Below are positions 5,975 through 64,000 of a stretch of 64,000 bases of DNA, piece after piece. Position 1 is the stretch's first letter, and each line of letters opens with the position of its first letter. Source of the stretch: Kiritimatiellia bacterium (GTDB lineage: Bacteria; Verrucomicrobiota; Kiritimatiellia; RFP12; UBA1067); the NCBI GenBank assembly GCA_017427485.1, contig JAFRSR010000142.1, forward strand, positions 1,862 to 65,861. Direction: 5' to 3'. The translations under genes were made by a program, and so were the position numbers. The notes beneath the pieces are model-generated. The model worked only from the letters and a program-made list of their open reading frames with translations, ran no database searches and was not told the origin of the DNA.

Positions 5975-5995
5975 TTGACAGTCGGGGCCGTGCCG

Positions 5996-6004
5996 TGCTA
6001 AACT
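5996..6004 (+). promoter_or_regulatory. extended -10-like box (TGCTAAACT), leaderless geometry
   Basis: tgctaaact is followed by 6 nt and then ATG 6011, with no SD sequence. Confidence 0.4.
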
Positions 6005-6010
6005 TACGGC

Positions 6011-9000
6011 ATGAAATCACATGTATTCCTCTTTCTTGTGGTTGTCGCGGCTTGCGCGACCCTTCCGGCGCGGGCGGCGCTGACGGTGACGGCGACGAAC
6101 GGCGTGGAGTCGCTCACGCTGACCTTCGACGCAGCGGCGGACGTACGCGAGCTGTGGTGCGCGTGGGACGACGCCGACAAGGGCGCGGGTTTCGCCGACT
6201 GGGCGGAGAGCGAGCGCGTGGCGATCGTCGCGGCCGACGAGACCGCGCTCACGGTGGCGCTCCCGAACGACGCACGGCGCGCGGCCTACGCGCGGTTCTT
6301 CCTCTTCGAAGGCGGCGCGTCGTACCCCTGCGCGTTCATCCGCGGCACCGGCACGCAGTACCTCAACACGGGTTATTTCGCGACGCCGAAAACCTCCATC
6401 GGCATGGAATTCGAGCTGGAGGACCTGTTTACGGTGCAGCAGATCGTCTTCGGCTCGGAGGGCTCGACGTCCATCGTGCGCGCGTACATCAACGGAAACG
6501 GACTCTGGGCGTGGGCGTTCATCGACGGCGCGACCGGCAACTGGAAGTCGAGCGACGTTCCGTTCGATCATCGGCGGACGCTCATCACGCTGGACGGCTA
6601 CAACGACCTCTATTCCATTTCCGTGGACGGCGTGGCCGTTCATAGCGAGGCGATCTCCGCTGCCGTCGCCGACACCAAGCGCACGGCGACGTGCGACGTG
6701 CCGATCTACCTGCTCGCCAGCCGGAATACGCAAGGCGGCGACGTGGGGCAGATCATGAAGGCGAAGTTCTACGGAGCGACGATCGATGAGGAGGGCGTGC
6801 GCCAGCACACCTACGTGCCGTACGTCTCCGCCGGCGTGGCGGGCGCATATGACAGTGTGGCGGACGCGTTTCTCGGCAACGTGGGCACGGGCGAGTTCGT
6901 GCCGGGCGGCCGCGGCGGCGACGTCTCGGGCGCGGAGGCGGGCGAGGCGCTCGACCTCGACGCGGTGCGGGGCGGCTCGGCCGGGCCGGAAACGGTCTAC
7001 GTGAACGTCGGCAAGACAAAGACGGTGGTCTTCGACGGACCGGCGACGATCGACTACAGGCTGGTGAAGATCGGCGAAGGCACGCTCGTCCTGGAGGGGA
7101 CGCGCACGTTCAACCATGACGTGATCATCTCCAACGGCATCCTGCGCGCGAACTGGGCGACGAGCGGCCTCGCCGGCACGCATCTGGGAATCTGCAACGC
7201 CGGCTCAAACGCCAATCTCTGCTATTTCCAGGAGACGAGCGACTCGTTTACGGCGTCGGTGGCGGCGAGCGGTCCGGGCACCGTGGAACTGTACGGCTAT
7301 TCGGGCGTCATTCCGTTCCAGCAGGACCTTACCGTCAATTTCGGCGGCGACGGGCGGACGGTCACGCGCGGCGCGAACGGGTTCAACACGACCAGCTTCT
7401 GGCTGACCCACAGCAGCTCGACGAACAGCACGACATTCGTGAACAACATCGACTTCGCGGGCCTGAACCTCGAGAGCAAGGGCAGCGGCAGCGGCACGGC
7501 GTTCTACACGGGGTACATTACGAACTCGACTTCCACGACGGCGGGCGTCTGGAACTTCTGGGGCGGCAATATTGTACTTGTAGGCTCGAACGGCGGACGG
7601 ACGAGAGACGTCTATGGTTATCAGGTCAACAACCATGCCTCGACGCTCATCTTCTCGAACGCGACTATCGAGGTCACGCACGACTTCCTCGCGGGCGCCG
7701 ACAACAACCAAGTGTCGCACACGACGCTCGTGAACTGCAGGCGGTACGCGCAATCGGCGAACTGGGACTTCATCTCCGGCGCAGCCGGCACCACGCTGGT
7801 GATCGACGGTGGCTCGTTCGAGCGTCCGAACGCTTACATGATCGTCGGTTATACGAGCAACAGAAAGGGAACGTGCACCGTCACGAACGATGCCGTTGTC
7901 TCGAGCCAACAGATCCGGACATACCCCGACGGATGCTTCCGTCAATGCGGAGGAACTTCCTCGTTCCTACGCCTGATTCAGTACGGCGGGCTTGTGGAGT
8001 TGCACGGCGGCCGGATGAACCTGACGTCGGGCGAACAGCATGTGGGGTCTTCCAGTCCGCAAGGTCCCTCGACTTTCGCGATGTACGGCGGCACGCTGTA
8101 TGTCTCGGACGGACAGAACATGCAGATCGGTTCCTACTCGAAGGGCTGGTTCCATCAGGAGGGCGGAGAAGTGTCCGTCCCGAACTATTTCGCCGTGGGC
8201 CGATACGCGGCCGGCGACGGGCGACTGGACGTCCACGGCGGCACGTTCACGCACCGTAACCAGGGTGCTATCCGCATCGGGGAGGACGGTACGGGCACGG
8301 TGTCAGTGGCGAACGGCGGCACGTTCGTCGATCTGGCCGGCAACTCGCCGATGTCCGCGAACGCCAAAGGCGTGGGCACGCTCTTCCTCTCGCCCGACGG
8401 CGTATTTGAGACGCCCCAGCTCAAGGCCGGAGCGGCCGGGCGCGACAACGGCGTCGTTTTCAACGGTGGCACCCTGAAGCTGCGGACGAACGGCTCGCCG
8501 AGCGCGTTTCTCGACTCGACGCTCACGCGCGTGACGGTATCGCCCTACGGCGGCGCAATCGACACGAACGGCAAGGGCGACTTCACGCTGAACCGCGCGC
8601 TGGGTCCGACGACGGACGCGGGCGACCTCTCGGAGGCGCTGGCGCACCGCTGGAGCTTCAAGGGCGGCTCGCTCGTGGACAGCGTCGGCGGCCTGACGGC
8701 GACGGTGGGCGGCACCGTGGACCTGGAGGACGGCGCGGTGCGTCTGAAGGGGACATCCCGAGGAACGAGCTGCGTCAACCTCGGCACGGACCTGCTGCCG
8801 ACGGACGGGCGCGGCGCGACGATCGAGGTGTGGGTGACGCCGCTTTCGTTCAAGAGCTGGGCACGCGTGATCGACTTCGGCCCGGGAAGCGAGGGCACCG
8901 GAAAGGACCTCTACTTCTCGTTCAACGACGGAAATAACACGGCAGAGGCCCGGGCTCACTTCCGCACCATCAATGCGACTCTTAACTGCTATATCCCGTC

Positions 9001-23604: not shown

Positions 23605-25083
23605 TCACCCGAGGTACGCGCCCTGTTTCTTGAGCGTGTCCACCAGCGTCGCCGCGTCAAGCGCGCGCGGCGCCACGGTGTTCTTCACGCACAGAGCGGC
23701 CGCCGTGCCGGCCGCCTGCCCCATCGCCATCACGGGCGGCATCACGCGCACCGCGCCGGCGGCCTCGCTCGTCGCCGAGAGGCAGCGCCCCGCGACGAGC
23801 AGGCCGTCCACGGCCTTCGGCACGAGGCAGCGGTACGGCACGCCGTACCAGTTGCCGTTCTTCACGGTCACGTACTGGTTGCTCATGGGGCCAAAGCGTC
23901 CGTGGATGTCCACGGAGTTCGCGGCCAGCAGGATCGAATCTGCCGGCACGCGTCCCTCCAGGCAGTCGTCGACCGTGAGACGGTATTCGCCGAAGATGTG
24001 GCGCGACTCGCGCACGCCGACCGTCGAGCCCGTGCAGAGGAGGCGCGCATCGGCGCAGCCCGGCACGTACTTCTTGAAGAAGCGGAAGATCTGGTCCACC
24101 TGCGCGCGTCCGGCGGATTCCGCCGCGCTCCAGCTTTCGGGATCGGTGGAGTTGACGCCCATGATGCGCGAGGTGTTGATGAACCACTCGTCCTCCTTCA
24201 CGCCGCGGAAGAGGCCGATCGAGACGCGCTTGAGGTTCCAGTCGCCGGCGGCGCGCGCCTCCGCGACGCGCCAGTGGAGCGAGCGGTAGTTGACGCCGTC
24301 CTTGCGGTAGAAGTTGTCCTTGTTCGCCTCGATGTCCGCCGTGATGGCCTTGAGGTCGCAGTTGCCGATGCGGAAGAACATCGTCGCGGGCTGCACGCGC
24401 TTGCCCTGCGGGTCGCCGAACTCCGTCGGCACGCCCGCGCGGAACGCGACGTCGCCGTCGCCCGTCGCGTCAATCACCACCTTCGCGCGCACGTCGCGGA
24501 AACCGGCCTTCGTGAAGAGCGTCGCGCCCGCGACGCGCGTCCCGTCCATGAGCGGCTTCACGAAGTCCGCGTGGAAGAGAACCTTCACGCCGGCCTCCGC
24601 GCACATCTCGTCGAGGAGGAGCTTCAGCGCCTCCGGTTCGAATGGCGTGCAGTGGTCGTGTCCGACCTTGATCCAGCTCGTGAACGCCGTGCCGGCGCGG
24701 CAGTCCTTCGGGTGGATCGCGCCGCCGCGCGCGACGAGGCGCTCGACGATCTCGTTGAAGAGACCGCGGATGATCTGCACGGAGCCCGTCTTGTCGTAGC
24801 ACGTCATGAACGGCCCCACGAGGCCGCGCGTCGCCATGCCGCCAAGGCAGTTCCCGCGCTCCACCACCAGCACGCGTGCGCCGTTCCGCGCGGCGGCAAT
24901 GGCGGCGCACGCGCCGGCCGGCCCGCCCCCCGCCACCAGCACGTCAACATCCCCACTGGGAGAACGGACATCTTGTCCGTTGCAACTGGGAGAACGGGCG
25001 TCTTGTCCGTTCCCGGCCGTCGCCGCGCCCACCACGGCGGCCAGCGACGCGCTTTTCAAGAAACCTCTTCTGTTGCATTCCAT
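23605..25083 (-). CDS. Tat-signal FAD-dependent oxidoreductase
   Basis: Twin-arginine motif NRRGFLKSASLAAVVGAATAG. Dinucleotide-binding fold DVLVAGGGPAGACAAIAAARNGARVLVVER. Confidence 0.75.
   Translation of the reverse strand: MECNRRGFLKSASLAAVVGAATAGNGQDARSPSCNGQDVRSPSGDVDVLVAGGGPAGACAAIAAARNGARVLVVERGNCLGGMATRGLVGPFMTCYDKTGSVQIIRGLFNEIVERLVARGGAIHPKDCRAGTAFTSWIKVGHDHCTPFEPEALKLLLDEMCAEAGVKVLFHADFVKPLMDGTRVAGATLFTKAGFRDVRAKVVIDATGDGDVAFRAGVPTEFGDPQGKRVQPATMFFRIGNCDLKAITADIEANKDNFYRKDGVNYRSLHWRVAEARAAGDWNLKRVSIGLFRGVKEDEWFINTSRIMGVNSTDPESWSAAESAGRAQVDQIFRFFKKYVPGCADARLLCTGSTVGVRESRHIFGEYRLTVDDCLEGRVPADSILLAANSVDIHGRFGPMSNQYVTVKNGNWYGVPYRCLVPKAVDGLLVAGRCLSATSEAAGAVRVMPPVMAMGQAAGTAAALCVKNTVAPRALDAATLVDTLKKQGAYLG
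24955..25014. repeat. 2 x 30-nt hairpin elements in frame inside the FAD oxidoreductase gene
   Basis: actgggagaacggacatcttgtccgttgca and actgggagaacgggcgtcttgtccgttccc, each with stem aacgg(a/g)c/gtccgtt. They encode NGQDARSPSC and NGQDVRSPSG between the Tat signal and the Rossmann fold. Confidence 0.9.
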
Positions 25084-25155: not shown

Positions 25156-25272
25156 ACCCCCTGCGTACGGTCAATTTCGGTTCTTGCCGTGCCAACAGAA
25201 TCTTGGTAATATGTCTTTTGCTGAAAAAGGAAAAACTGGCAACAAGTAAAATTTTCAAGGAGACAAGTCAAT

Positions 25273-25329
25273 GACAGGCGACACGCGACATGCGACAGGC
25301 GGGACGATGGACACGCGACATGCGACAGG
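25273..25329. repeat. TGTCGC-heptad repeat copy, reverse orientation
   Basis: gacaggcgacacgcgacatgcgacaggcgggacgatggacacgcgacatgcgacagg belongs to the same heptad family as 864-950, 1161-1223 and 2075-2137. Confidence 0.8.
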
Positions 25330-25353
25330 TTGCTCTCTGAAAGGAGTTGCTTT

Positions 25354-33557: not shown

Positions 33558-35975
33558 ATGAACGCGAGAAAGACGATAGGCCTTGTTTGGGCGGTGGCAA
33601 TCGCCGTCGTCGCGCAGGGAGCCGAAGTCGAATCAGTCAAGAGCGCAACCGGGCAAGGCGTCTCGATCTTTGACCCTGCCACATGGGGCATTTCAGGAGT
33701 CCTGTCGTCCGCCGACGACTACATCCTCAAGCACAACGGCATTTCCGTGAGCCCGAGCCGCTACATGGACGCGACGACGAAAGTCGCCACGTTCCCTGGC
33801 AACTCGCTGCACCTGCGCGCATCGTTCCAGCCGGATAGCAGGGGGTATGTCCTTGAATTCCCGCGCGCGGGACTCTTCTTCGACCAGAATGGCATCTTCC
33901 GTACGTGGGATACGTCCACGACGCCGGGAACGATAGGCGTGACGGGAACGGCCATCACCGTGACGAGTCCGGATTCCGCACCGGCGAAAATCATGTCCAC
34001 GGCCGCGCCCCCCGGGGTCATGACATGTGATTTCTGCGCGCCGCTGAACGGCGCGGCCGGGACGCGGCTGCAGGTGCAGCGATACTCAAACTCAACCTAT
34101 CCGGGCACCATGACGCTCCGTCTCCTGAACGCTTGCACGAACTTCTTCGGCACGATCCGCCTGGAAGGCAACAAGAGCACGCTGGTGCTGGGAACGCCAG
34201 AGTTCCCGGGGACGGTGCGGCTGTGCTACACGACGGCGGGCGGCACCAGCACCCTGACGGCGCTGGACGGCGTGAACGCGTCGGTCAAGGCGGTCATCGG
34301 CGAGAACGCCCCCGTGACGATTGCCGTGCCGCAGGCGGATTCGTTTGAGATAGGCGACCTGACGCTGGCGGGCGGCACGATTTCGTTTGCGGCCGTGGGC
34401 TCGGGCACGAACACGCATGCCGCCGTGCTGGCGGTGACCAATTCGCTCGCCCTTTCGTCGCCCGTGACGATCGCGTATCCGGCGGGCGCGGCGGCGTTCC
34501 GCGCGGCGCCGCTCGACGACCTGGCGGCGGCCGTGACCGTGCTGACGCTGCCGGTCGGGAAGGGGACGCTTTCCGCGAGCGACTTCACGCTTGCCATCGA
34601 GGCGCAGCCTGACGTCTGCGGCGCGCTTCCGCATAGCCCGTATCTAGCGGTGCGGACGGTCGATGGCCTCCAGCGGCTCGTGGTGGCCTACGACCAGCCG
34701 GTTGTTGTTCAGACGTTTCCCGATTACTCCAATAACGGAGGGTCGTCTTTCCTGGAGGCGAACAAGGGTCGGTGGTCGGACGGGCAGCTGCCGGGACCCG
34801 GCAAGCACTACTTCGTGCCGGCGAATGTCCAGCTCATGACGGTGAACAACGTGCCGTTCACCGGCGAGTCGTTGACGGTGCGCGGAACGCTGGCGATCTG
34901 CGCGCAGCGCTTCACGGTGACGGCCATTTCGTTTGTGGGCGGGGCGGTCATCTACGAATACTCAAGCAATCCTGTCCTTGACGGGCCGGTGACGACTTAC
35001 GGCACGGATGCCGTCCGCGTGCGCCCGTCGCCGGGCAACACGCTCACGTTCACCGGCGAGCTTTCGGGCACGGCGCCTTTCCGCCTCCTCTACTACGAGG
35101 CAAACGGCGTCGGGAGAAACACCGGCGTGAGGTTTTCGCACGACAACACGCCGTATGCCGGAAAGTTTGAATTCGGCGTGGCGAACACGAGCGGACTCAG
35201 CAGCGACTACGCAGACGGGAACACAAGCGTGAAGCTTCAGGTTGCCGACCAGCGGGAGTTGGGCGGCCCGCTTCCCGCCTTTGCGTACGACGCGATCACG
35301 CTCAACAGCCGCATGGGCGTGGCGGCAGTCGATTCACTGGTGTTTGACGAACCGACGCGCGGGCTCTATGTCTACGGGGCCGGGCGCGTGGACGTGCCGG
35401 CCGGGAAGCAACTGGCATTCGCCCAGCCCATTACCTGGCGCGGGAGCCTGATGAAATACGGCGCGGGCACACTGGCGTTCGGAGGCGTCTCCGCCCCGAG
35501 GTTCTACTATCAGAGCGCGATTCACGACACGCCGATGACGACGGCGGACAAGATCATGCGGACGACCGTGCTGGAAGGCGGCGTGAAGGCGCTCACGACG
35601 AATGCCCTGGACGGCTGCGAGCTGGAGATCTGCTCGGGTGCGTCGCTCGTGCTGGACGCCGCCCCGACGAACGCGGACCTGCGGGCGTACGGGTTCGTCA
35701 ACGCGAAGTGGGGCACGCCGTTCGTGCTGCCCGAGGGGATGACGACGGTGCCGGTGACGTTCGACTTCGGCGGCGGGGAACCGGATTTCGCGGTGCGCAC
35801 GCTCGGCATCTGCACGGTGAGGTCGGACGCGACGGGCGTTTCGAATGCGCTGTTCGCGCCGGTGCCGCCGAGCCGCTACGGCGCGCGGGTCCTGTCGGCG
35901 GTCGACGCCGCAACGGGCCTGACGACCTACTCCGTGCAGATCGCCCGGAGCGGCCTCACGATCATCTTCAAGTAA
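33558..35975 (+). CDS. secreted large surface protein (beta-helix-like, no named domain recognised)
   Basis: Signal peptide MNARKTIGLVWAVAIAVVAQGA. Gly/Thr/Ala-rich repetitive strands. It ends ...RSGLTIIFK. Confidence 0.65.
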   Translation: MNARKTIGLVWAVAIAVVAQGAEVESVKSATGQGVSIFDPATWGISGVLSSADDYILKHNGISVSPSRYMDATTKVATFPGNSLHLRASFQPDSRGYVLEFPRAGLFFDQNGIFRTWDTSTTPGTIGVTGTAITVTSPDSAPAKIMSTAAPPGVMTCDFCAPLNGAAGTRLQVQRYSNSTYPGTMTLRLLNACTNFFGTIRLEGNKSTLVLGTPEFPGTVRLCYTTAGGTSTLTALDGVNASVKAVIGENAPVTIAVPQADSFEIGDLTLAGGTISFAAVGSGTNTHAAVLAVTNSLALSSPVTIAYPAGAAAFRAAPLDDLAAAVTVLTLPVGKGTLSASDFTLAIEAQPDVCGALPHSPYLAVRTVDGLQRLVVAYDQPVVVQTFPDYSNNGGSSFLEANKGRWSDGQLPGPGKHYFVPANVQLMTVNNVPFTGESLTVRGTLAICAQRFTVTAISFVGGAVIYEYSSNPVLDGPVTTYGTDAVRVRPSPGNTLTFTGELSGTAPFRLLYYEANGVGRNTGVRFSHDNTPYAGKFEFGVANTSGLSSDYADGNTSVKLQVADQRELGGPLPAFAYDAITLNSRMGVAAVDSLVFDEPTRGLYVYGAGRVDVPAGKQLAFAQPITWRGSLMKYGAGTLAFGGVSAPRFYYQSAIHDTPMTTADKIMRTTVLEGGVKALTTNALDGCELEICSGASLVLDAAPTNADLRAYGFVNAKWGTPFVLPEGMTTVPVTFDFGGGEPDFAVRTLGICTVRSDATGVSNALFAPVPPSRYGARVLSAVDAATGLTTYSVQIARSGLTIIFK

Positions 35976-35995
35976 AACAGAAAAGGAACAGGCAA

Positions 35996-37027
35996 ATGGC
36001 AATCGAGCAGACGGGCATCAGCTACTACGGGCTGAACTACGTGGAGCACGCGGAGGCGGACTTCTCCGAGATGAAGGCGCACGGGGTCACGCAGGTGATC
36101 CTCGCCGTCACGGAGTTCGACTTCGACTTCTGGCGTCCGAACATCCCGAAGATCGTCGAGAAGGCGCACGAGCTGGGGCTGCGCGTCCTCATCGACCCGT
36201 GGGGCAACGGCAAGTACTTCGGCGGCGAGCAGGTGTCGAAGTTCCTGCAGGACAACGTGGAGAACCGCCAGGTCTCCGCCCTCACCGGCGAGAGGCTGCC
36301 CTACGCCTGCTTCAACACGAACAGCTACCGCGACTACTTCCGCAACTTCTGCACCACGCTCGCGCGCGAGACGGCGTGCGATGGCTTCTTCTGGGACGAG
36401 CCGCACTACGCCTTCCCGAAGGGCATCGCCTCCATCACGGGCGGCGTGGCGGACGACTGGACGTGCTTCTGCCCCGTCTGCCGCAAGCGCTTCCTCGACT
36501 ACTACGGCTACGAGATGCCGCGCTACATGACGAACGACGTGAAGCAGTTCCGCTGGCGCGAGGCGCTCGTGGTGCTGAGCGGCACGTCGAAGGCCATCAA
36601 GGAGATCCGCGAGGACTGCGAGATCACCTGCTGCGTGCACGCCACGCAGAACGGCTACTACGTGAGCGAGTACCGCGGCTACGACAACTGGGACCTCGTG
36701 GGCGCGTGCCCGTACTTCGACGTGTTCTCGACCACGATCGTCAACTGGGCTCTCCCCGAGGACTTCTTCCGCGAGATCACGCGCCGCACGGTGGCGATCG
36801 CGAAGAAGTACGGCAAGCAGTCCGAGCGCTGGCTCATGGGCTACTACAAGCAGCCGAAGGACTTCTCGCAGATCGACCGCTGGGTGGACATCGCCGTGGA
36901 GGAGGGCGTGGACCGCCTCTCGGCCTGGACCTACCGCGGCGGCTACGGCACGGTCGTGGGCGCCCCCGACGCGCTCAGGCTGTGGGATCGGATCGGCGAG
37001 AACTACAGACGCGTGCTGGACGCGTAG
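35996..37027 (+). CDS. cytoplasmic hypothetical protein, possibly a (beta/alpha)8 glycosidase-like fold
   Basis: ATG 35996 is in frame with listed ORF 35708-37027. High GC3. No signal peptide. Motifs FFWDEPHY and CFCPVCRKRF. No confident family assignment. Confidence 0.45.
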   Translation: MAIEQTGISYYGLNYVEHAEADFSEMKAHGVTQVILAVTEFDFDFWRPNIPKIVEKAHELGLRVLIDPWGNGKYFGGEQVSKFLQDNVENRQVSALTGERLPYACFNTNSYRDYFRNFCTTLARETACDGFFWDEPHYAFPKGIASITGGVADDWTCFCPVCRKRFLDYYGYEMPRYMTNDVKQFRWREALVVLSGTSKAIKEIREDCEITCCVHATQNGYYVSEYRGYDNWDLVGACPYFDVFSTTIVNWALPEDFFREITRRTVAIAKKYGKQSERWLMGYYKQPKDFSQIDRWVDIAVEEGVDRLSAWTYRGGYGTVVGAPDALRLWDRIGENYRRVLDA

Positions 37028-37047
37028 GAGGGTTGCGCGAAGCGCGG

Positions 37048-37077
37048 CCGTATGGAGAGCCGCCATCTGGACGGCGC
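37048..37077 (+). repeat. degenerate copy of the CCATATGGGGAG-type hairpin element
   Basis: ccgtatggagagccgccatctggacggcgc compares with ccatatggggagccgccgtctcggcggc at 49760 and 53819. Confidence 0.55.
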
Positions 37078-37198
37078 ATGACCGCGAACATCGCTTGAAT
37101 TTCCCCACGCGTCTCCTACAAAAGGTGTGCGGGGGACTAGATTTTTTCCGCCATTTCGTGTAAAATACACTCTCACATACACCCGAATAGGAGACCGA

Positions 37199-38155: not shown

Positions 38156-38173
38156 GGAAAGACCGATGAGGAA

Positions 38174-38247
38174 GGACAGAGGACAGATGACAAAGGACAA
38201 AGGATCGCTGTTCCAGCCTTTGTCTGCTGTCCTTTGTCCTTTGTCCT
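38174..38247. repeat. GGACAGA/GGACAAA heptad inverted-repeat hairpin
   Basis: Left arm ggacaga ggacaga tgacaaa ggacaaa gga. Right arm cctttgtctgctgtcctttgtcctttgtcct. It lies directly after the stop at 38155, so it may act as a terminator or intercistronic structure. Confidence 0.85.
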
Positions 38248-39713: not shown

Positions 39714-41066
39714 ATGATTGATTCGGTTTGGCTGAAGGCGCGCGCCGACGACGTGCGGCGCGTGGACGCGATCGACCCCGCGTTGTACCAGAAGTACAAC
39801 GTGAAGCGCGGGCTTCGCAACACAGACGGCACGGGCGTGCTGGTGGGCTTGACGACCATCGGCAACGTCCACGGCTACGTCGTCTCGGAAGGGGAGAAGC
39901 AGGCCGTCCCCGGCCAGCTCTTCTACCGGGGAATCGACGTGGTCGACCTCGTGCGCGCCTGTGAACGCGAGAAGCGCTTCGGGTTCGAGGAATGCGCCTA
40001 CCTGCTGCTCTTCGGCGAGCTGCCCACGGCGGCGCAGCTCGCGGAGTGGCAGGGGCTGCTGGCCGAACACCGACGTCTTCCCGACGGCTTCAAGGAAAAG
40101 GCGATCGTGCACGCGCCGGGCATGGACCTCATGAACTCCATCGCCCGCGCGGTGCTGACCGCCTACACCTACGACACCACGCCGGACCTCCTCGACATCG
40201 AGACGAACCTCCGCCAGGCCGTGGAGCTGATCGCGGGCTTCCCCACGATCGCCGCGTACGCCTACCAGGCCAAGGCCCACTACCACCTCGGGCGCGCGCT
40301 CATGATGCGCTATCCCGACCCCACGCACGGCACGGCGGAGAACATCCTCACGCTCATCCGTGAAGACGGCACCTACTCGCGGCTCGAGGCCGAGACGCTC
40401 GACCTCGCGCTGATCCTCCACGCCGAGCACGGCGGCGGCAACAACTCGAGTTTCGTGACGCATGTCATCACCTCCTCGTTCTCGGACATGTACTCCACCG
40501 TGGCCGCCGCCACGCTCTCCCTCAAGGGCAGCCGCCACGGCGGCGCGAACCTCCGCACGATGCGGCAGATGGCCGAGATGAAGCGGAACATCCGCACGTG
40601 GACGGATGCCGACGAGGTGGCCGACTACATCGCGAAGATCGTGCGCCGCGAGGCGGGCGACGGAACGGGGCTCGTCTACGGCCTCGGACACGCCGTGTAC
40701 ACCATCTCCGACCCGCGCGCCCAGCTCCTCAAGGAGAAGGCGAAGATGCTCGCCGAGGCGAACGGCCGCATGGACGAGTTCGTGCTCTACGACGCGATCG
40801 AGACGCTTGGCCCCGGCATCATCCAGCAGATCCATCCCGGCGCGCGCGACGTGTGCGCCAACGTGGACCTCTACAGCGGTTTTGTCTACGACATGCTCGG
40901 CATCCCGCATGACCTCTACACGCCGCTCTTCGCCGTCGGCCGCGTCGTGGGCTGGTGCGCGCACCGCATGGAGGAGCTCGTAAACGGCGGGCCGATCATC
41001 CGTCCCGCCTACAAGCCCGTCTACAAGCGGGCCCGGCCCTACGAACCGATGGAGGCGCGCGGGTGA
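39714..41066 (+). CDS. gltA: citrate synthase
   Basis: LILHAEHGGGNNSSF, GSRHGGAN and GLGHAVYTISDPR are citrate synthase signature regions. Confidence 0.85.
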   Translation: MIDSVWLKARADDVRRVDAIDPALYQKYNVKRGLRNTDGTGVLVGLTTIGNVHGYVVSEGEKQAVPGQLFYRGIDVVDLVRACEREKRFGFEECAYLLLFGELPTAAQLAEWQGLLAEHRRLPDGFKEKAIVHAPGMDLMNSIARAVLTAYTYDTTPDLLDIETNLRQAVELIAGFPTIAAYAYQAKAHYHLGRALMMRYPDPTHGTAENILTLIREDGTYSRLEAETLDLALILHAEHGGGNNSSFVTHVITSSFSDMYSTVAAATLSLKGSRHGGANLRTMRQMAEMKRNIRTWTDADEVADYIAKIVRREAGDGTGLVYGLGHAVYTISDPRAQLLKEKAKMLAEANGRMDEFVLYDAIETLGPGIIQQIHPGARDVCANVDLYSGFVYDMLGIPHDLYTPLFAVGRVVGWCAHRMEELVNGGPIIRPAYKPVYKRARPYEPMEARG

Positions 41067-44277: not shown

Positions 44278-45003
44278 ATGCCGACGGCATACGAGATGCG
44301 CGCGGCGGCGTGGCGCAAGATGAAGGAAGGCGCGCTGCTGCCCCTGCTCGCCGGCTTCGCGCTGCTCTTCCTGCTGGGTTCGTTGTTCGACGCGGCGGTC
44401 AACCTGTTCGGCAAGTGGCAGGGCTGGATCACGGCGGTTCCGATTCTCGACGTTGTGGACCAGCTGGGCATCACGCTGGAACCCGACCAGGAGAAGGCGT
44501 TGGCGGCCGTCACCATCTCGCAGGCCACGCCTGCCTACCAGGCGGCCACTCTCGTGGTGAACGCCCTTTGGGAGGGCGTCCTCGCGTTCGGCGGTTCCGT
44601 AATCGCCATCGCCGCCATGCGCGGAGGCGCAACGGCGTTCCAGGCTCTGTCCGGATTCCGCTGGCCGTTCCGCACCGCCGGACTCGGGTTCCTGCGCATG
44701 TTGCTGGTTTTCCTCTGGTCGCTTCTGCTCGTCGTTCCGGGCATCCGCGCGGCCTACTCCTACCGGATGGCGTTCTACCTGCTCGCGGACCATCCGGACT
44801 GGGCGCCAGGGCAGGCGATCGCCGAGTCAAAACGCCTCATGCACGGCCACCGGTGGCGGCTGTTCTGCCTTGACGTCTCTTTCTTGGGCTGGTTCCTGCT
44901 CGTAGGCGTCACGCGCGGACTGGCCGGCATCTTCGTGATGCCCTATTTCGCGACTGCGAACGCCGCGTTCTACGAAGACCTCCTCGACCGGGACGGGCGC
45001 TAA
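44278..45003 (+). CDS. integral membrane protein, DUF975-like
   Basis: Several hydrophobic helices. The N-terminal ...AWRKMKEGALLPLLAGF... and overall size resemble DUF975 proteins. The call is tentative. Confidence 0.4.
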   Translation: MPTAYEMRAAAWRKMKEGALLPLLAGFALLFLLGSLFDAAVNLFGKWQGWITAVPILDVVDQLGITLEPDQEKALAAVTISQATPAYQAATLVVNALWEGVLAFGGSVIAIAAMRGGATAFQALSGFRWPFRTAGLGFLRMLLVFLWSLLLVVPGIRAAYSYRMAFYLLADHPDWAPGQAIAESKRLMHGHRWRLFCLDVSFLGWFLLVGVTRGLAGIFVMPYFATANAAFYEDLLDRDGR

Positions 45004-49757: not shown

Positions 49758-49790
49758 CTCCATATGGGGAGCCGCCGTCTCGGCGGCGCG
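49758..49790 (+). repeat. CCATATGGGGAG-type GC hairpin element
   Basis: ctccatatggggagccgccgtctcggcggcgcg has stem gccgcc/ggcggc around a gtctc loop. It is near-identical to 53817-53851. Confidence 0.85.
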
Positions 49791-49820
49791 AATTTCGGCT
49801 TGCGGGAAAAGGCCGGAGTG

Positions 49821-49835: not shown

Positions 49836-49985
49836 ATGTTTGGAAAAGGACAGAGGACAGAAGACGGCGGACAAAGGATGGAAGCACAATCCTTTGTCAT
49901 TTCGTCCTTTGTCCTCAAACAAGAGTGTACATCCTGCGCGCCGCGAGAGCGGTGCGCGCCGAAGGAGAAGGAGAGCGGAATATGA
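49836..49985 (+). other. candidate 49-codon upstream ORF ending in an ATGA overlap with the start of the 49982 gene
   Basis: MFGKGQRTEDGGQRMEAQSFVISSFVLKQECTSCAPRERCAPKEKESGI. It spans the heptad hairpin at 49848-49915. Its TGA at 49983-49985 overlaps ATG 49982. Confidence 0.25.
49848..49915. repeat. GGACAGA heptad inverted-repeat hairpin, second copy
   Basis: The left part is ggacagaggacagaagacggcggacaaagga and the right part is tcctttgtcatttcgtcctttgtcct. It belongs to the same family as 38174-38247. Confidence 0.85.
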
Positions 49986-52900: not shown

Positions 52901-53743
52901 TTGGGCGGAACCGCCGGGCGTAATGACGCGCTCTCTCTTCGAACCAGCAACAATACCGCCATCGGCATCTGGCGCGACGTGCAGGCGCATCCGGGCGATC
53001 CGTCGCTCCCGCTCGTCACCACGAGCGGCAACACCAGCAGCCAAATGGGCAGCATCGCGGATCCCACGAAGACGGAATTCCACAAGAACGGCGTGGTGGT
53101 GAACCAGAAGACGGAGCCGATGGGCGGAGGATACGACCTTTATTCGGTGAAGACGATCACCGCGCACAGCATGGAGTCGGACACGCTCGGCGGCATCCAC
53201 TACGCGCAGTCCTGGGGCGGCGTGGAGCTGGGCGAGATCGCCTACTACGAGCGCGTCCTCACGCCGGACGAGGTCGCCGACGCGGAGAGCCATCTTCTCC
53301 TCAAGTGGTTCAACCACGGGGGACCGTACCGCCGTCCAGCGGCGGTGGGAACGCTTGCCGTCTCCGCCGGTGCCACCCTCTCCCTGTTCGGCGGCGCGCC
53401 GATGACGGTTTCCGCGCTTTCCGGTTCCGGGACGGTCGACGGCGACGTGAAGTTCGCCTCCGGCGGCGGGTTGACGGCCGTGGTGGCGGCGGACGGCTCG
53501 ATCGCCTCGCTGACGGTCACGGGCGCGTTTGACGCGTCGGCCGGCGGCGTGGTGACGTTCACTGGCGCGACGGAGAACCTGCAGATCGGGAACTATCCCC
53601 TCGTCACGGCGGCGGAGTTGACGTTCGGCGGCCAATGGACATGCGTCTCGCCAGACGCCTCTCGGACCGCCTTCCTGCGCAAGGAAGGCAACACGTTGAC
53701 GCTCGTCGTCGCTTCGCGCGGCACGATTCTCATCTTCCGCTGA
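49982..53743 (+). CDS. giant secreted beta-helix protein with LamG-like modules
   Basis: SD aaggagaaggag followed by ATG 49982. Signal peptide MKKLIVYLAAMGIAGGTGLSVRA. LamG-type ends ...YIIYTNALTYAERLQVSDYLMRKW and ...IAYYERVLTPDEVADAESHLLLKW. It ends ...RGTILIFR. Confidence 0.75.
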   Translation: MKKLIVYLAAMGIAGGTGLSVRAANGTWNWFTESYTNGLSIEAAADWNDTANWVEGVVPEGESPTAYIVPSDRTSSMASFPARWIKVPDAGVTLGYLSTRQAAKVYLLGGPISFGDTSTYNASFSALRDEVQNSSTCPVWIYNAITFPNLTARNTGTLVNRVNICAPVTCPPPARIQISADYRHYMNRYATSTSEQVVDEGVTGRLSPGSGGVRLYARMSAPEQTGVWITTDQSPYLRRVGAAHDLTPGCAVTGPGIPDGAWLKRIFAADLIEISAPATADSGDDGATLTFGAFNPTTIQHMDSFANQGAANAEVALYATKFRKDDVFRVEITNLVCISSYAVTFNLDTDTTASNNFATNKTYYPGTVVLHKTPANDSTLIRLRKAHVEFAGGGCRRIDISDNARITAPAGTTAVVKIVHGWTAPLTKDGAGTLDIASTNSTHSGLVVEEGNFIFRPSYSGTATMGTLAVSNNATFTLAAGTSLKVTSAPALQAGARIVIEEGARLLLPGSYVLPSGVTFDGAGTLVSAYSTGGLDGGPIRSTPPAGAVVGNPAFWVTAESLTNAVPSGTLVVEDGTRFVTRLNDCRGGAEDGYHFCTNVYNRPWLVTDGAVPYIQFKTGTSGGSESANNYGLAWDVPLTNIRAVFAVLSSPSSGMGCLLGATKRLTPCDYLRGSTGSGSNIFYWNGSGSSPNVHDAPIYRNGVEIKYNSNYNGCSDTTIIEVDTLGDTSADAFSICHSGQWGKRWDLCGGRLVEYIIYTNALTYAERLQVSDYLMRKWRGEPSPHKFADQRQRVSAVTFPQGDAAYGMYVASGEAVTALGVETGGVLGKTGGGTLHLMDYSDPTGTLRVEEGTVVVQSVDPAAFALPPGAYLHLDASADATLTKTTSGGITRVTAWSDPDGGLTATLKAAASTNAPRLVENVLNGRPVLDFGAAQGSQAQGAKNDPTMRFPLSRDIRTVFSVLGSKGGGNTILGGTAGRNDALSLRTSNNTAIGIWRDVQAHPGDPSLPLVTTSGNTSSQMGSIADPTKTEFHKNGVVVNQKTEPMGGGYDLYSVKTITAHSMESDTLGGIHYAQSWGGVELGEIAYYERVLTPDEVADAESHLLLKWFNHGGPYRRPAAVGTLAVSAGATLSLFGGAPMTVSALSGSGTVDGDVKFASGGGLTAVVAADGSIASLTVTGAFDASAGGVVTFTGATENLQIGNYPLVTAAELTFGGQWTCVSPDASRTAFLRKEGNTLTLVVASRGTILIFR

Positions 53744-53746
53744 CCG

Positions 53747-53851
53747 CTACGGGCGAGACGCCCGTTGTCCCAGTGGTAGGGCGCGGCGTCCTCGACGCGC
53801 CGCCAAGATGGCGGCGTTCCATATGGGGAGCCGCCGTCTCGGCGGCTCCCC
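53747..53851. repeat. cluster of three GC hairpin elements of the CGTCTCG-loop family
   Basis: ctacgggcgagacgcccgttgtcccagtgg (53747-53776, inverted orientation). tagggcgcggcgtcctcgacgcgccgcc (53777-53804). ttccatatggggagccgccgtctcggcggctcccc (53817-53851), which has a perfect 11-bp stem. Confidence 0.85.
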
Positions 53852-53871
53852 TTGCATGAAACCAAACGGTA

Positions 53872-53880
53872 TGATACAAT
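53872..53880 (+). promoter_or_regulatory. extended -10 box (TGATACAAT), leaderless geometry
   Basis: tgatacaat is followed by 8 nt and then ATG 53889, with no SD sequence. Confidence 0.45.
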
Positions 53881-53888
53881 ATAGCACC

Positions 53889-55016
53889 ATGAAAAAACAC
53901 CTTCAGGGCATCAACCCGTTCAGGTACGGGTGCGTGGTCGAGGATAGCTTCTACTGTCCGAGACCGTCGCTTGAACGTCAGCTCGCCGGATTTATCCGTT
54001 CCGGGCAGAACGTCGTCGTCCACGGCGAACGGCGCATGGGCAAGACGTCGCTGATCAACGCGGTTGTGCGCGGCATGCGCGGGTGGCGGATGCTCTACGT
54101 GGACCTGTTGCACGTCCAGACCGTCGGCGACGTCTGCCGCCGGATCGTCTCGTCCGTGCGCAACCTGGAGCGGAAGGCATCCCTCTTCGAGAAGGCACTG
54201 AAGCTTCTGCCGAGGTTGCGGCCGGTGATGAAGGTGGATCCCGCAACGGGGGAATTCGGGTTCGGGCTTGACGCGCGCGCGGCGGAGGATCCGTATGCCG
54301 TGGAGGAGGTGCTGGACATGCTCGCCAAGGTCGCGGCCAACGGTCGGACGGTCGTCGTGTTCGACGAGTTCCAGGACGTCGGCAATCTCTCGGGCGCGCA
54401 GACCGTGCTTGCCCTCATGCGCGGACGCATCCAGTTCCAGGGCGACGTACCGTACGTGTTCACCGGCAGCGTCAGAAGCAGGATGGTCGAGTTGTTCGAC
54501 AATCCCGACAGCGCCTTCTACAAGTCCGCGCTCACCCTGTGCGTCGGGGAGATCGACAGGGATTCCTTCGCGAGCTTCCTCCAGAGCCGCTTTGAAACCG
54601 GACGACGGCGCGTCTCCGACGAGACGGTGAGCGCCATCATGGACACCGTCGCGGACGTTCCGGGCGACGTGCAGCAGCTGTGCGAGGCGGCCTGGGGCGT
54701 GACGTCGGGTAGCGTGGGGGTCGAGGACATCGAGGCGGCGCTTCAGGTCGTGTTCATGCGCGAGGGAGACAAGTTCGAAAGTTTCTGCGAACGGCTTTCG
54801 CCCGTGCAGTTCAAGTTGCTGATGGGCATCGCGCGGCTGGGCGGCCGCGAAATCCAGTCGCGCGCGTTCCTCGACGAGGCGGGAATCGGTAATGCGGCGT
54901 CCGCGCGGAAGGCCGCGATCAGGCTTTGCGAACTCAGGTACGTCTATTCGTTCAGGGGCGAGTACCGATTCTCCAGCATGTTCTTCAGGGCTTGGCTTTT
55001 GCGCCGTGACTATTGA
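53889..55016 (+). CDS. Arch-ATPase (ATPase_2)-type P-loop NTPase
   Basis: Walker A GERRMGKTSLINAV. Walker B VVVFDEFQDV. ATG 53889 is preferred over the listed 53808, which begins inside the hairpin repeat. Confidence 0.65.
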   Translation: MKKHLQGINPFRYGCVVEDSFYCPRPSLERQLAGFIRSGQNVVVHGERRMGKTSLINAVVRGMRGWRMLYVDLLHVQTVGDVCRRIVSSVRNLERKASLFEKALKLLPRLRPVMKVDPATGEFGFGLDARAAEDPYAVEEVLDMLAKVAANGRTVVVFDEFQDVGNLSGAQTVLALMRGRIQFQGDVPYVFTGSVRSRMVELFDNPDSAFYKSALTLCVGEIDRDSFASFLQSRFETGRRRVSDETVSAIMDTVADVPGDVQQLCEAAWGVTSGSVGVEDIEAALQVVFMREGDKFESFCERLSPVQFKLLMGIARLGGREIQSRAFLDEAGIGNAASARKAAIRLCELRYVYSFRGEYRFSSMFFRAWLLRRDY

Positions 55017-55107
55017 ACTAGAAATATGGGCGCATCTGCGTTTTTCACCAAGGCGCATTGAGATTGGAAACAACCAGAACAACTGGTAAAAACAACTTTA
55101 AAGAAGT

Positions 55108-55204: not shown

Positions 55205-55519
55205 ATGATGGATGCAACAGAACTGAAAAACCACGTCTATGACATTGTGGGCGCACTGCATTCCGTTCGCGACGAGCTCGGGCCCGGCATCAACGAATAC
55301 TGCTACCAAGAAGCGCTTGCGATGGAATTGTCCGACAGGGGCATCCCGTTTGTTCGCCACAATCGAGCGGTATTTCTACGACACGGACAACCGCGAGATC
55401 CTGACCTCCGACGGGAAGCCGTTCCAGGATCGGCAAATGGGCTCGGGCGAGTTAGCCCGTGCGCCAAAGGCAAGTTGTTTCAAATAGTTGTTTCCATTCA
55501 TCAGAAGGCTCGGCGGTGA
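55205..55519 (+). pseudogene. GxxExxY-family (PD-(D/E)XK-like) gene, apparently truncated or frameshifted
   Basis: The N-terminal half MMDATELKNHVYDIVGALHSVRDELGPGINEYCYQEALAMELSDRGIPF matches the GxxExxY family (GINEYCY). After that no frame continues the expected second half. The region is more A/T-rich than its flanks. Confidence 0.5.
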
Positions 55520-62870: not shown

Positions 62871-64000
62871 ATGAAAAGTGTGAAAATGCTCGCATGGGCG
62901 GTTGTGGCCGCGACAAGTGCGGCCCTCCCGGCCATGGCCGCGACGGTCACGGTCAACGCGCCGGCGGGCACGTCGACGAACGTGACGCAGGTGTTCAGCG
63001 GCGCGACGACCGTCGCCGTCAACACGGGCGCGACGGGCGGCACGGTGCGGCTCAGCCCGCACAACGCGCACACGGGCGGCACCACGCTCTCCTCCGGCAC
63101 GCTCGACGTGCAGCAGGAGTCGCAGCTCGGCGGATCGCTCAAGCTTCTCGGCGGCAACTTCCGCTACTCCGGCCCGGCGGGCGCCGTGTGGACGACCGCG
63201 ATCACGAACTCCGCGCCGAACGCGGCCGTGTCGCAGAACTGGCGCATCGACAGCGACCTCACGATGGCGGGCAACGTGTGGTCCACCGACGGCCTGTTCG
63301 TGAAGACAGGTCCCGCCACGCTCACGCTGACCAAGCCGTTCTACCTCGGCGCGGAGACGACCAACCACGGTTCGCGCGACACGCTCATCGACCTGAGCGA
63401 CGACCGTGCGCCCACGACTGGCATGTCCGGCGCGACGATCGCCGAGGGAACGGTCGTCATTGACACGCCCTACGACGAATCCGTCACCAACAAGTTCAGC
63501 AACAACGGCGGTGCCTCGATCATCGCCGCGCGCACCACGAACGCCGTCAACGAGGCCGCGCTCATCGTCTCGAACGGCATCACCCGCACACACGCCGCGC
63601 TCGTGGTCGGCGGGGGGTACGGCAAGGGCGCCGTCGGCGGTTCCTACGTGAAGGGACGGCTCGAGGTGTCGGGCGGCACGTTCATTGTCGGAAACACCGC
63701 GGCGAACATTCTCTACACGTGCGTCAACAACATTCCGAACGACTTGCGCGTGGAGGCCGTGGTGGACGTCTTCAGTGGGCAGCGGCTCTACTGCAAGGGC
63801 TACTGCCCCGCCTACAACAAGAACACGTACTCCCTGACGTGCGTCCACGACGGCGGTTATTTCTACAATCAGGACAACAGCATCGTCGCAGGCAATACCA
63901 GCACCGCCCCAGCCGACGCCTCCACCACGAACGAGGTCGTCATCACCGGCAGCGGGTCGCACCTCCTTTGCCAGAACTTCGAGAACGACCGCCAGAACGC
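62871..64000 (+). CDS. secreted beta-helix surface protein, N-terminal part (3' end off the window)
   Basis: SD agggag followed by ATG 62871. Signal peptide MKSVKMLAWAVVAATSAALPAMA. The frame is open to base 64000; I translated 63420-64000 without finding a stop. It is absent from the ORF track, probably because the ORF is open-ended. Confidence 0.7.
   Translation, partial: MKSVKMLAWAVVAATSAALPAMAATVTVNAPAGTSTNVTQVFSGATTVAVNTGATGGTVRLSPHNAHTGGTTLSSGTLDVQQESQLGGSLKLLGGNFRYSGPAGAVWTTAITNSAPNAAVSQNWRIDSDLTMAGNVWSTDGLFVKTGPATLTLTKPFYLGAETTNHGSRDTLIDLSDDRAPTTGMSGATIAEGTVVIDTPYDESVTNKFSNNGGASIIAARTTNAVNEAALIVSNGITRTHAALVVGGGYGKGAVGGSYVKGRLEVSGGTFIVGNTAANILYTCVNNIPNDLRVEAVVDVFSGQRLYCKGYCPAYNKNTYSLTCVHDGGYFYNQDNSIVAGNTSTAPADASTTNEVVITGSGSHLLCQNFENDRQN

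Follow-up and report, generated by a model that had tools for sequence, protein, structure and literature searches.

Introduction

Repetitive extragenic palindromic (REP) sequences have been sorted into two superfamilies, GTAG-tagged and CGTC-tagged (Di Nocera, De Gregorio & Rocco 2013, PMC3733652). GTAG REPs are found in the Planctomycetes-Verrucomicrobia-Chlamydiae (PVC) superphylum, with several families coexisting in Opitutus terrae; this species has the most intragenic GTAG REPs, in genes for helicases, UvrA, ligase, ABC transporters and others, and REPs in general tend to lie 3′-proximal to the gene upstream of them (PMC3733652). CGTC-tagged REPs have a terminal unpaired CGTC, stems of 8-9 bp starting from A-T pairs, a loop of 4-5 nt and a CCA tail (PMC3733652). 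Here, we analyze short GC-rich hairpins that recur in a 64,000-nt stretch of DNA from a Kiritimatiellia bacterium (contig JAFRSR010000142.1, positions 1,862 to 65,861; called the window throughout) and compare them with these and other described systems.

In Escherichia coli, binding and cleavage by the transposase TnpA-REP require a 5′ GTAG and a mismatch in the stem (Messing et al. 2012, PMC3479197; the work of Ton-Hoang et al. 2012 on TnpA-REP and the E. coli REPs and bacterial interspersed mosaic elements, BIMEs, is cited here via Messing et al.). In the model for REPINs, doublets of REPs are mobilized in trans by a REP-associated tyrosine transposase (RAYT; Bertels & Rainey 2011, PMC3116915).

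We propose that the hairpins of the window are GTAG-tagged REP elements of a bacterium of the Kiritimatiellae (PVC superphylum) and are mobilized by a RAYT, an interpretation to which we assign a probability of about 85%.

Results

Fourteen units of two families in the window

The units are 26-35 nt long, within the 20-40 nt expected of REPs. In each of them, a short single-stranded head precedes a GC-rich hairpin whose loop measures 3-4 nt (TCT, TCC or TCCT). A preliminary description of this DNA had given them a CGTCTCG-type loop; the motif is indeed there, but its flanking C-G pairs belong to the stem. It had also distinguished three subtypes by their heads, here called A (CTGGGR), B (GGTAGGG) and C (ATGGRG). 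Type B is separate, but the split between A and C did not survive alignment: the A/C heads, CTGG(G) or ATGG(R), have only TGG in common, yet the two types align without gaps, with this TGG 15 nt before the loop centre (counted on the alignments). Because they align in register and have a common GCCGCC class of stem, we treat A and C as one family, making two families in total. At many loci outside the window, an A unit has a C unit (GTATGGAGAGCCGCCGTCTCGGCGGCTCA) immediately on its 5′ side.

Two covariance models were used to count the units, R1 from 27 aligned A/C-type units taken only from metagenome contigs, and R2 from 22 aligned B-type units taken only from genome-collection contigs. R1 recovered nine A/C copies in the window (E ≤ 3.4e-4; next match E = 0.027) and R2 five B copies (E ≤ 0.006; next match E = 0.23). 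These 14 units, at six loci, are cleanly apart from the background, and the similarity first noticed by eye thus holds up under proper models. All the copies listed in the preliminary description were recovered where it had placed them, but two had been missed, an inverted B unit at 5646-5680 and the unit at 53794-53828. The density of A/C and B copies is 14 per 64 kb in the window; in other Kiritimatiellae contigs, 141 kb in all, R1 finds 7 A/C units.

Compared to Markov-3 simulated sequences, the window (about 65% G+C) is rich in hairpins with a TCT/AGA loop (13 observed vs. 2.6 ± 1.5). The combination of head and loop has 5 matches for type A, 5 for type B and 2 for type C (0.42, 0.43 and 0.00 expected, respectively). 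A loose grammar, in which any T[AG]GG is followed by any hairpin, showed no clear enrichment in the window (64 vs. 44.6 ± 8); only the specific families are real, not the generic grammar. Additional candidates, such as 40984-41009, 40518-40549 and 44520-44534, were at noise level in the R1 and R2 searches, and GGAGGG-like matches at 6044-6065 and 62905-62928 fall in signal-peptide codons (VAACATLP and AATSAALP) and were not counted as units. Inspection ruled out a CRISPR array, the tandem units abutting with constant spacers of 4 nt, and Rfam 15 gave zero matches at gathering score across the whole window.

The hairpins are conserved as such. DNA folds of the units range from -7 to -18 kcal/mol, and the expected hairpin was obtained in 10 of the 11 copies tested, the exception being the degenerate copy at 37046. 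Among the matches listed from the genome scan described below, the arms of type B covary: the two positions left free by the search pattern pair in 122 of 123 copies each, and a purine-purine mismatch is conserved in the stems. The head GGTAGGG is invariant in 22 of 22 diverse B copies and in all five B copies of the window. For type A, the scan pattern left the 3′ arm unconstrained; this arm begins with CCCGTT or a one-base variant in about 129 of 134 copies among the matches listed.

Dispersal in Kiritimatiellae and related genomes

The genes of the window encode, among others, giant PATR and LamG proteins, TilS, an ABC-F ATPase and a Tat-exported FAD-dependent oxidoreductase. The closest named relatives of the window's proteins come from metagenome-assembled genomes (MAGs) labeled 'Kiritimatiellae bacterium'. 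ABC-F genes identical to that of the window occur on contigs with XIEF21 names, which, from a reading of the names, suggests ruminant gastrointestinal metagenomes.

A scan of one genome per species with a type B pattern (GGTAGGGCGSGGCSTCN{2,3}GACSCGCC) matched at least 98 contig stretches from many Verrucomicrobiota/Kiritimatiellae MAGs. They include Kiritimatiellae rumen MAGs (e.g. RGIG2632, RGIG1307, RGIG5952), Chthoniobacter, Opitutales, Verrucomicrobiae and Luteolibacter, plus a few MAGs labeled Pirellulales, Acidobacteria or Firmicutes/Bacteroidota. Some of these off-lineage labels probably reflect mis-binning, making the taxon of some matches doubtful. A scan of metagenomes for type A (pattern CTGGGANAACGGGCGTCTYG) matched at least 120 contigs, all containing the type of unit present at 53744-53778. 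The units are therefore a dispersed family of the REP/RPE-like kind, as had been suggested, and because of this dispersal in outside contigs they are not confined to the window.

An alternative would be that the units arose as local duplications, or as peptide repeats selected at the protein level, with DNA similarity a by-product. The 30-nt tandems in the ABC-F and FAD oxidoreductase genes and the 87-nt repeat in TilS (see below) could indeed come from slippage. However, the units are also intergenic, lie on both strands and are read in other frames (GRAGRLDPP in the window; VGRGVPDAP on contigs L076 and L081), they occur in hundreds of unrelated contigs, and their conservation tracks base pairing rather than codons. 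As a full explanation this one is already refuted by the dispersal and pairing data, and we give it hardly any credence. Slippage probably accounts for local changes in copy number, not for the family.

Further features of the outside copies were noted. B-type units occur on contigs of MAGs labeled Muribaculaceae, Gemmiger and Faecalibacterium (L016, L018, L032, L036, L074); since the ABC-F gene on L036 shares 82% DNA identity with that of the window, these contigs are probably mis-binned Kiritimatiellae DNA. In contigs of Chthoniobacter type (L006, L022, L024, L029, L037, L054, L061, L082, L092), a conserved segment of about 35 nt (...GTAACTCGAAGTGTTATGCGGCCGCGTTGTCA) precedes a B doublet, which suggests that doublet and segment form a larger composite element in this lineage. 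A units likewise lie within a longer conserved frame, CCATTGGCC...GCGAAGCCA [A unit] GCGTGGGCGGGCCATTGGCGGTCCATGCAACGCG, on L118, L122, L130, L141, L150, L162 and L165; this frame is a recurrent composite of about 100 nt around many A units.

Units inside genes and their turnover at linker sites

Eight of the 14 units of the window lie within open reading frames (ORFs), and all of them keep the frame. The preliminary description was thus correct in placing copies in both orientations and in both intergenic and coding DNA. Two A units on the minus strand are found in the linker of TilS, between the PP-loop domain and TilS_C (Pfam), each encoding LGEAASRRFK. The first, at 2501-2535 (R1 30.4 bits, E 5.6e-7), is in the sense orientation and in frame, with a CTGGGGGAA head, a 9-bp stem (GAAGCGGCG) and a TCT loop, and its DNA fold has a free energy of -12.7 kcal/mol (z -4.8). 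The second, at 2588-2622 (R1 30.2 bits, E 6.4e-7), lies 87 nt, or 29 codons, away.

In the ABC-F gene, the linker before the C-terminal coiled coil contains three tandem B units on the plus strand followed by an inverted one, translated as GRAGRLDPPN three times and then TARPEAAPYQ. The first tandem unit (5553-5582) has an R2 E-value of 0.0058 and matches the B pattern, the second (5583-5617; R2 43.5 bits, E 7.3e-8) keeps the conserved internal mismatch in its DNA fold, and the third (5618-5647) has an R2 E-value of 1.5e-5. The three form a tandem of 30-nt units. The inverted unit at 5646-5680 on the minus strand (GGTAGGGCGCGGCCTCCGGACGCGCC), which forms an inverted doublet with the third, also matches the pattern and is the best R2 match of all (46.6 bits, E 1.4e-8).

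Two further A units lie on the plus strand, antisense to the gene encoding the FAD-dependent oxidoreductase (23605-25083, minus strand). The unit at 24951-24985 (R1 42.9 bits, E 1e-10) is in frame between the Tat signal and the Rossmann fold, and the Pfam FAD_oxidored domain begins at residue 47. Its tandem 30-nt neighbour at 24986-25015 (R1 E 7.2e-5) has two G.T pairs in the stem. They are translated as NGQDVRSPSG for the 24951-24985 unit and NGQDARSPSC for its neighbour. The mixed orientation of the units relative to transcription, together with their different reading frames, argues for an element that acts at the DNA level.

The preliminary description had proposed comparing orthologous loci, and the number and type of units do differ between relatives in the ABC-F and TilS linkers. 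Across 120 ABC-F orthologues, a hypervariable linker lies between two constant flanks, YDYYCEKKAQ and LTSKELRQQRAAE. Where the window has three B units and one inverted unit, L110 (protein 94% identical) has one B unit and one inverted, L111 (95% identical) has three B units whose stems differ, and in L112 (92% identical) two inverted A units are accompanied by a further A unit whose loop is TTCCA. In the TilS linker, the orthologue P0243 (88% identical) has a single LGEAASRRFK unit, compared to two in the window; other relatives have MGSRHLGGSHWDNGHLARCK (a C+A composite read in frame), RTGTTGVSPVA, or nothing at this position. No repeat variation was seen among the same-species contigs L001-L005, and more distant relatives are therefore needed to observe turnover. 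What looks like a 155-nt insertion when L001 is compared with the window is a scaffold gap filled with Ns and not a polymorphism. In a rough ORF test at outside loci, about 24 of 96 A copies and 8 of 89 B copies were in coding-like ORFs.

A hairpin with a GGAGGG head (TCGCGC-TTCA-GCGCGA) also lies inside TilS, at 2532-2557 on the plus strand, head to head with the A copy at 2501-2535. It was found by a regular expression plus a hairpin test and had not been listed before. Its GGAGGGTCGC...GCGACC motif recurs beside A and B units at unrelated loci, and it looks like a fourth head subtype.

RAYT genes flanked by the same units in related contigs

No RAYT or Y1 homologue was found within the window by tblastn, and Pfam identified no transposase among the 18 window ORFs scanned, the remaining ORFs being unscanned, in line with the absence noted in the preliminary description, which had suggested searching for such an enzyme elsewhere in the genome. 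In related contigs, RAYT genes are flanked by their own REP family, for type B on L076, L014, L104, L106 and L109, and for type A once, on L141. The L076 contig, from a Kiritimatiellia MAG, contains a 172-aa ORF (5843-6358) with the motifs PDHIHMLV and YICQNP that matches the 'REP-associated tyrosine transposase' model of NCBIfam, NF047646, along its whole length (E 5e-21, 75.1 bits); it has arrays of B units on both sides and one in-frame unit inside. On L014, a RAYT homologue lies about 100 nt from a B unit. The RAYT homologues found number 159, and the three examined in context (L104, L106 and L109) are all flanked and interrupted by GGTAGGG units with contig-specific stems. The 29-mer of the window's B copy at 53775 is identical to the unit flanking the RAYT of L104. 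The contig L141, recovered via an A unit, encodes a different Y1 protein (VMPNHVHVLV) with inverted doublets of type A on both sides, scoring 39.4 bits with Pfam Y1_Tnp (cut-off 23) and 67.1 bits with NF047646. Pfam gave no match to the RAYTs of L076 and L109, and NCBIfam matches both.

The identity of these enzymes also bears on whether the units could be remnants of DDE-type insertion sequences, akin to miniature inverted-repeat transposable elements (MITEs) or Rickettsia palindromic elements (RPEs), left by a conventional transposase with terminal inverted repeats and a target-site duplication. RPEs, reportedly described by Ogata et al. in 2000, are said to be palindromic repeats inserted in frame in conserved protein genes. 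The classic RPE-1 is about 100-150 nt long. The units of the window resemble them in being short, in-frame palindromes at fold-tolerated positions in conserved housekeeping genes, the hallmark of RPEs, and in varying between relatives. They are, however, single hairpins of 26-35 nt with an asymmetric head and lack terminal inverted repeats, and thus differ in both size and ends from the RPE-1 type and MITEs. Moreover, the unit itself forms tandem and inverted arrays, and the adjoining transposase genes encode HUH/Y1 enzymes. We therefore consider a DDE-type origin very improbable.

RPE-4 and RPE-6 have been classed as CGTC REPs (PMC3733652); in contrast to these elements, which have a CGTC tag, stems starting with A-T and no known dedicated transposase, the units described here have GTAG-like heads and a link to RAYTs. 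The CGTC-tagged class as a whole was also ruled out, since CGTC sits inside the stem-loop (CGTCTCG) and is not terminal. In addition, the loop-distal end of the stem is G/C in types B and C, and there is no CCA tail. The units are thus RPE-like in behaviour, with in-frame coding copies, and REPs of the GTAG type in sequence architecture.

We also observed that REP units internal to RAYTs are in frame and occupy a single fixed loop immediately behind the HUH motif (L076 5843-6358, L104 4001-4567, L106 4001-4720, L109 4001-4861, P0121-P0240). In the shortest homologues, 11 aa separate PDHxHxxV from IGDFK; in others the separation reaches up to 63 aa, and the residues added there look like REP peptides (VGRGVPDAP, GVPGGHALP, GGRPLP). 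The RAYTs of L106 and L109 have units in their N-terminal part as well.

Intergenic copies and possible effects on RNA

The remaining six units are intergenic, between co-directionally transcribed genes. Four are packed into the spacer behind the giant gene that ends at 53743, a cluster beginning 1 nt after the stop codon and containing both orientations. The preliminary description had recognized clustered units here and counted three subtypes; the cluster stands, but it consists of four hairpins of two families. An A unit on the minus strand (CTGGGACAACGGGCGTCTCGCCCGT; 53744-53778; R1 42.5 bits, E 1.3e-10) is followed, head to head, by a B unit on the plus strand (GGTAGGGCGCGGCGTCCTCGACGCGCC; 53770-53805; R2 43.8 bits, E 6.2e-8). 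The fourth hairpin of the 53744-53851 spacer, overlooked before, is an A/C unit on the minus strand at 53794-53828 (plus-strand reading CGCCGCCAAGATGGCGGCG; R1 35.3 bits, E 1.9e-8). The last in order is an A/C unit with a 12-bp stem on the plus strand (53817-53851; R1 41.2 bits, E 3.2e-10), with a DNA fold of -17.7 kcal/mol (z -7.35). The palindrome CCATATGG at 53819 is the junction of two heads, those of this unit and its inverted neighbour.

Two intergenic A/C copies stand alone, both on the plus strand. That at 49758-49792, upstream of a 1272-aa gene (CCATATGGGGAG head, stem GCCGCCG; R1 39.2 bits, E 1.3e-9), has a 28-mer identical to that of the 53819 copy. The other, previously noted as degenerate at 37048-37077, is matched by R1 at 37046-37080 (21 bits, E 3.4e-4); it has a CGTATGGAGAG head, has lost the family fold (z = -0.85) and starts 19 nt past the stop codon of ORF 35708-37027.

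Their position raises the possibility that the units are not mobile DNA at all, but functional RNA elements, either terminators or stabilizers of 3′ ends, kept by selection on the site. Five intergenic copies start 1-19 nt past a stop codon between co-directional genes, the transcript predicted for 53735-53870 folds strongly (-75.1 kcal/mol, z -4.4), and a bias to 3′-proximal positions is known for REPs (PMC3733652). However, the scan of 53500-54000 showed no terminator-like site with a T-tract, and a T-run follows none of the copies; hairpins without a T-tract rule out intrinsic (Rho-independent) terminators, and no match was found in Rfam. Both orientations occur in one spacer, eight copies are in ORFs, some of them antisense, the number and type of copies at one site differ between close strains, and the units flank RAYT genes. 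An RNA element in place of a REP thus appears unlikely, while a secondary role in RNA on top of REP identity is compatible with these data. The promoter and terminator scan of the 53.5-54.0 kb region found nothing; TTGCAT...TATGAT, considered as a promoter, was dropped for its spacer of only 12 nt.

Discussion

Resemblance to described REP systems

The closest counterparts of the units are the O. terrae families GTAG-17 to GTAG-20, with which they share a head tetranucleotide, a GC stem of 6-13 bp and a loop of 2-4 nt (PMC3733652). In both organisms, several families coexist, units often form clusters and head-to-head or tail-to-tail dimers, intergenic copies favour the 3′ side of the gene before them, and many copies lie in frame in housekeeping genes, where they encode 7-30 residues (PMC3733652). 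Our back-translation of the O. terrae GTAG-19 peptides WHGRLARV and HGRDARAT (PMC3733652) gives GTGGCACGGGCGTCTCGCCCGTG, whose stem-loop core, GGGCGTCTCGCCC, is also that of type A. The differences are a host from a rumen Kiritimatiellae lineage, unsampled in PMC3733652, the position of the A/C heads (CTGGG/ATGG, 3-4 nt off the stem, vs. GTAG/GTGG abutting it), 30-nt head-to-tail tandem arrays where such dimers are rare in PMC3733652, and a higher intragenic share in the window.

As judged from sequence, type B has the two features required by the E. coli enzyme (PMC3479197), a GTAG head at the 5′ end and a conserved internal mismatch that makes the hairpin imperfect. As in E. coli BIMEs, subtypes alternate in orientation and the RAYT gene is flanked by its own REPs. 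The stem and loop sequences are unrelated, however, E. coli REPs are essentially extragenic, and the RAYTs found here, enzymes known from their sequences, carry REP units within their own ORFs, unlike TnpA-REP. Inverted doublets with a short spacer, typical of the Pseudomonas fluorescens REPINs (PMC3116915), are frequent for type B among the matches listed, and for type A they flank the transposase of L141. The window has three (5618/5646, 53744/53770 and 53794/53817). Unlike in P. fluorescens, singlets, head-to-tail arrays and mixed-family clusters are at least as common as symmetric doublets, and the two halves of B doublets usually have different stems (GGGG vs. GCGC).

The units depart from textbook REPs in the CTGG/ATGG heads of A and C, their frequent head-to-tail arrays and their high intragenic share. 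Several points weigh against identifying them as RAYT-mobilized REPs. The A/C heads are off the canonical GTAG/GTGG tag, which type B fits, and a predominantly extragenic location, the usual mark of REPs, is not seen in the window, where the share of 8/14 in genes is far above that of classical REP genomes. This excess is nonetheless compatible with REP membership, because the same departure is documented in O. terrae (PMC3733652). No RAYT lies in the 64-kb window, the link of type A to a transposase is a single locus (L141), and the RAYT matches (75.1, 71.3, 67.1 and 66.7 bits) fall just under the curated NCBIfam cut-off of 80, plausibly due to the REP units interrupting the ORFs. The pair counts of our alignment A1 are no independent evidence, since its units were picked for perfect stems. 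What the data establish are the two families, the covariation of their hairpins, their wide dispersal, the turnover at linker sites and the association with RAYTs in relatives. RAYT presence and per-genome copy number in this organism, which might run to hundreds, are extrapolated, and mobilization of the copies in this genome, like any effect at the RNA level, is something we infer rather than observe directly.

Proposed mechanism and implications

By analogy with the E. coli TnpA-REP work, the hairpin would form on single-stranded DNA, and a REP-associated tyrosine (HUH/Y1) transposase, with its gene in another part of the genome, would bind the head and the imperfect stem. By cutting and rejoining single strands, such an enzyme could copy, invert, array in tandem and move the units. 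Units would persist where they are harmless, either shortly after stop codons, at which the hairpins might in addition stabilize or end transcripts, or in disordered protein linkers if their length is a multiple of three. In linkers they would be translated as short peptides such as GRAGRLDPPN and LGEAASRRFK, and local tandem expansion would proceed in multiples of three bases.

A more speculative extension, which we regard as rather doubtful, is that REP units of Kiritimatiellae and Verrucomicrobia, instead of being scattered randomly, are directed to a few recurrent sites, namely the disordered linkers of essential proteins (ABC-F, TilS) and the loop after the HUH motif of the RAYT, and that they are gained, lost and swapped between families there among strains with 92-96% identical proteins. 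If insertion were targeted in this manner, for example beside resident units, and if units internal to the RAYT fed back on how strongly it is expressed or how active it is, the system would regulate itself while generating in-frame linker variation, and would be more than a passive genomic parasite.

The identification of the units as RAYT-associated REPs adds a rumen Kiritimatiellae lineage to the known REP-RAYT systems, with two REP families paired with two different Y1 transposases, and displays strain-level turnover of units in the linkers of essential genes. It leaves the general view of REPs unchanged; GTAG REPs of PVC bacteria, and numerous intragenic ones in O. terrae, had been described before (PMC3733652). 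For annotation, it is relevant that the units are translated inside real genes and probably spawn spurious small ORFs. They also coincide with short MAG contigs, most of the RAYT contigs found here being below 5 kb. The models R1 and R2 allow units to be masked or counted.

Other repeats in the window

Long intergenic hairpins made of short repeats of the GGACA/AAGGAC type lie just before genes at 38165-38245 and 49838-49913, and both stretches match L049, from another Kiritimatiellae MAG, at 81-86% identity. Short non-coding segments at 55027-55100 and 55455-55516 match L015 (rumen MAG RUG14821) with 83% and 95% identity, respectively, and flank a stretch of about 350 nt of lower G+C that holds only a short ORF. 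Direct repeats of 71 nt, 92% identical and rich in TGTCGC, are found at 1161-1231 and 2075-2145, around a lower-GC ORF (1144-2058) with 23S_rRNA_IVP and Zn_ribbon_Top1 domains. By eye, a similar GCGACA-rich stretch lies in the opposite orientation at 25262-25330, upstream of a 1390-aa gene, and together with the 71-nt repeats it may represent a separate repeat family or an inserted cassette.

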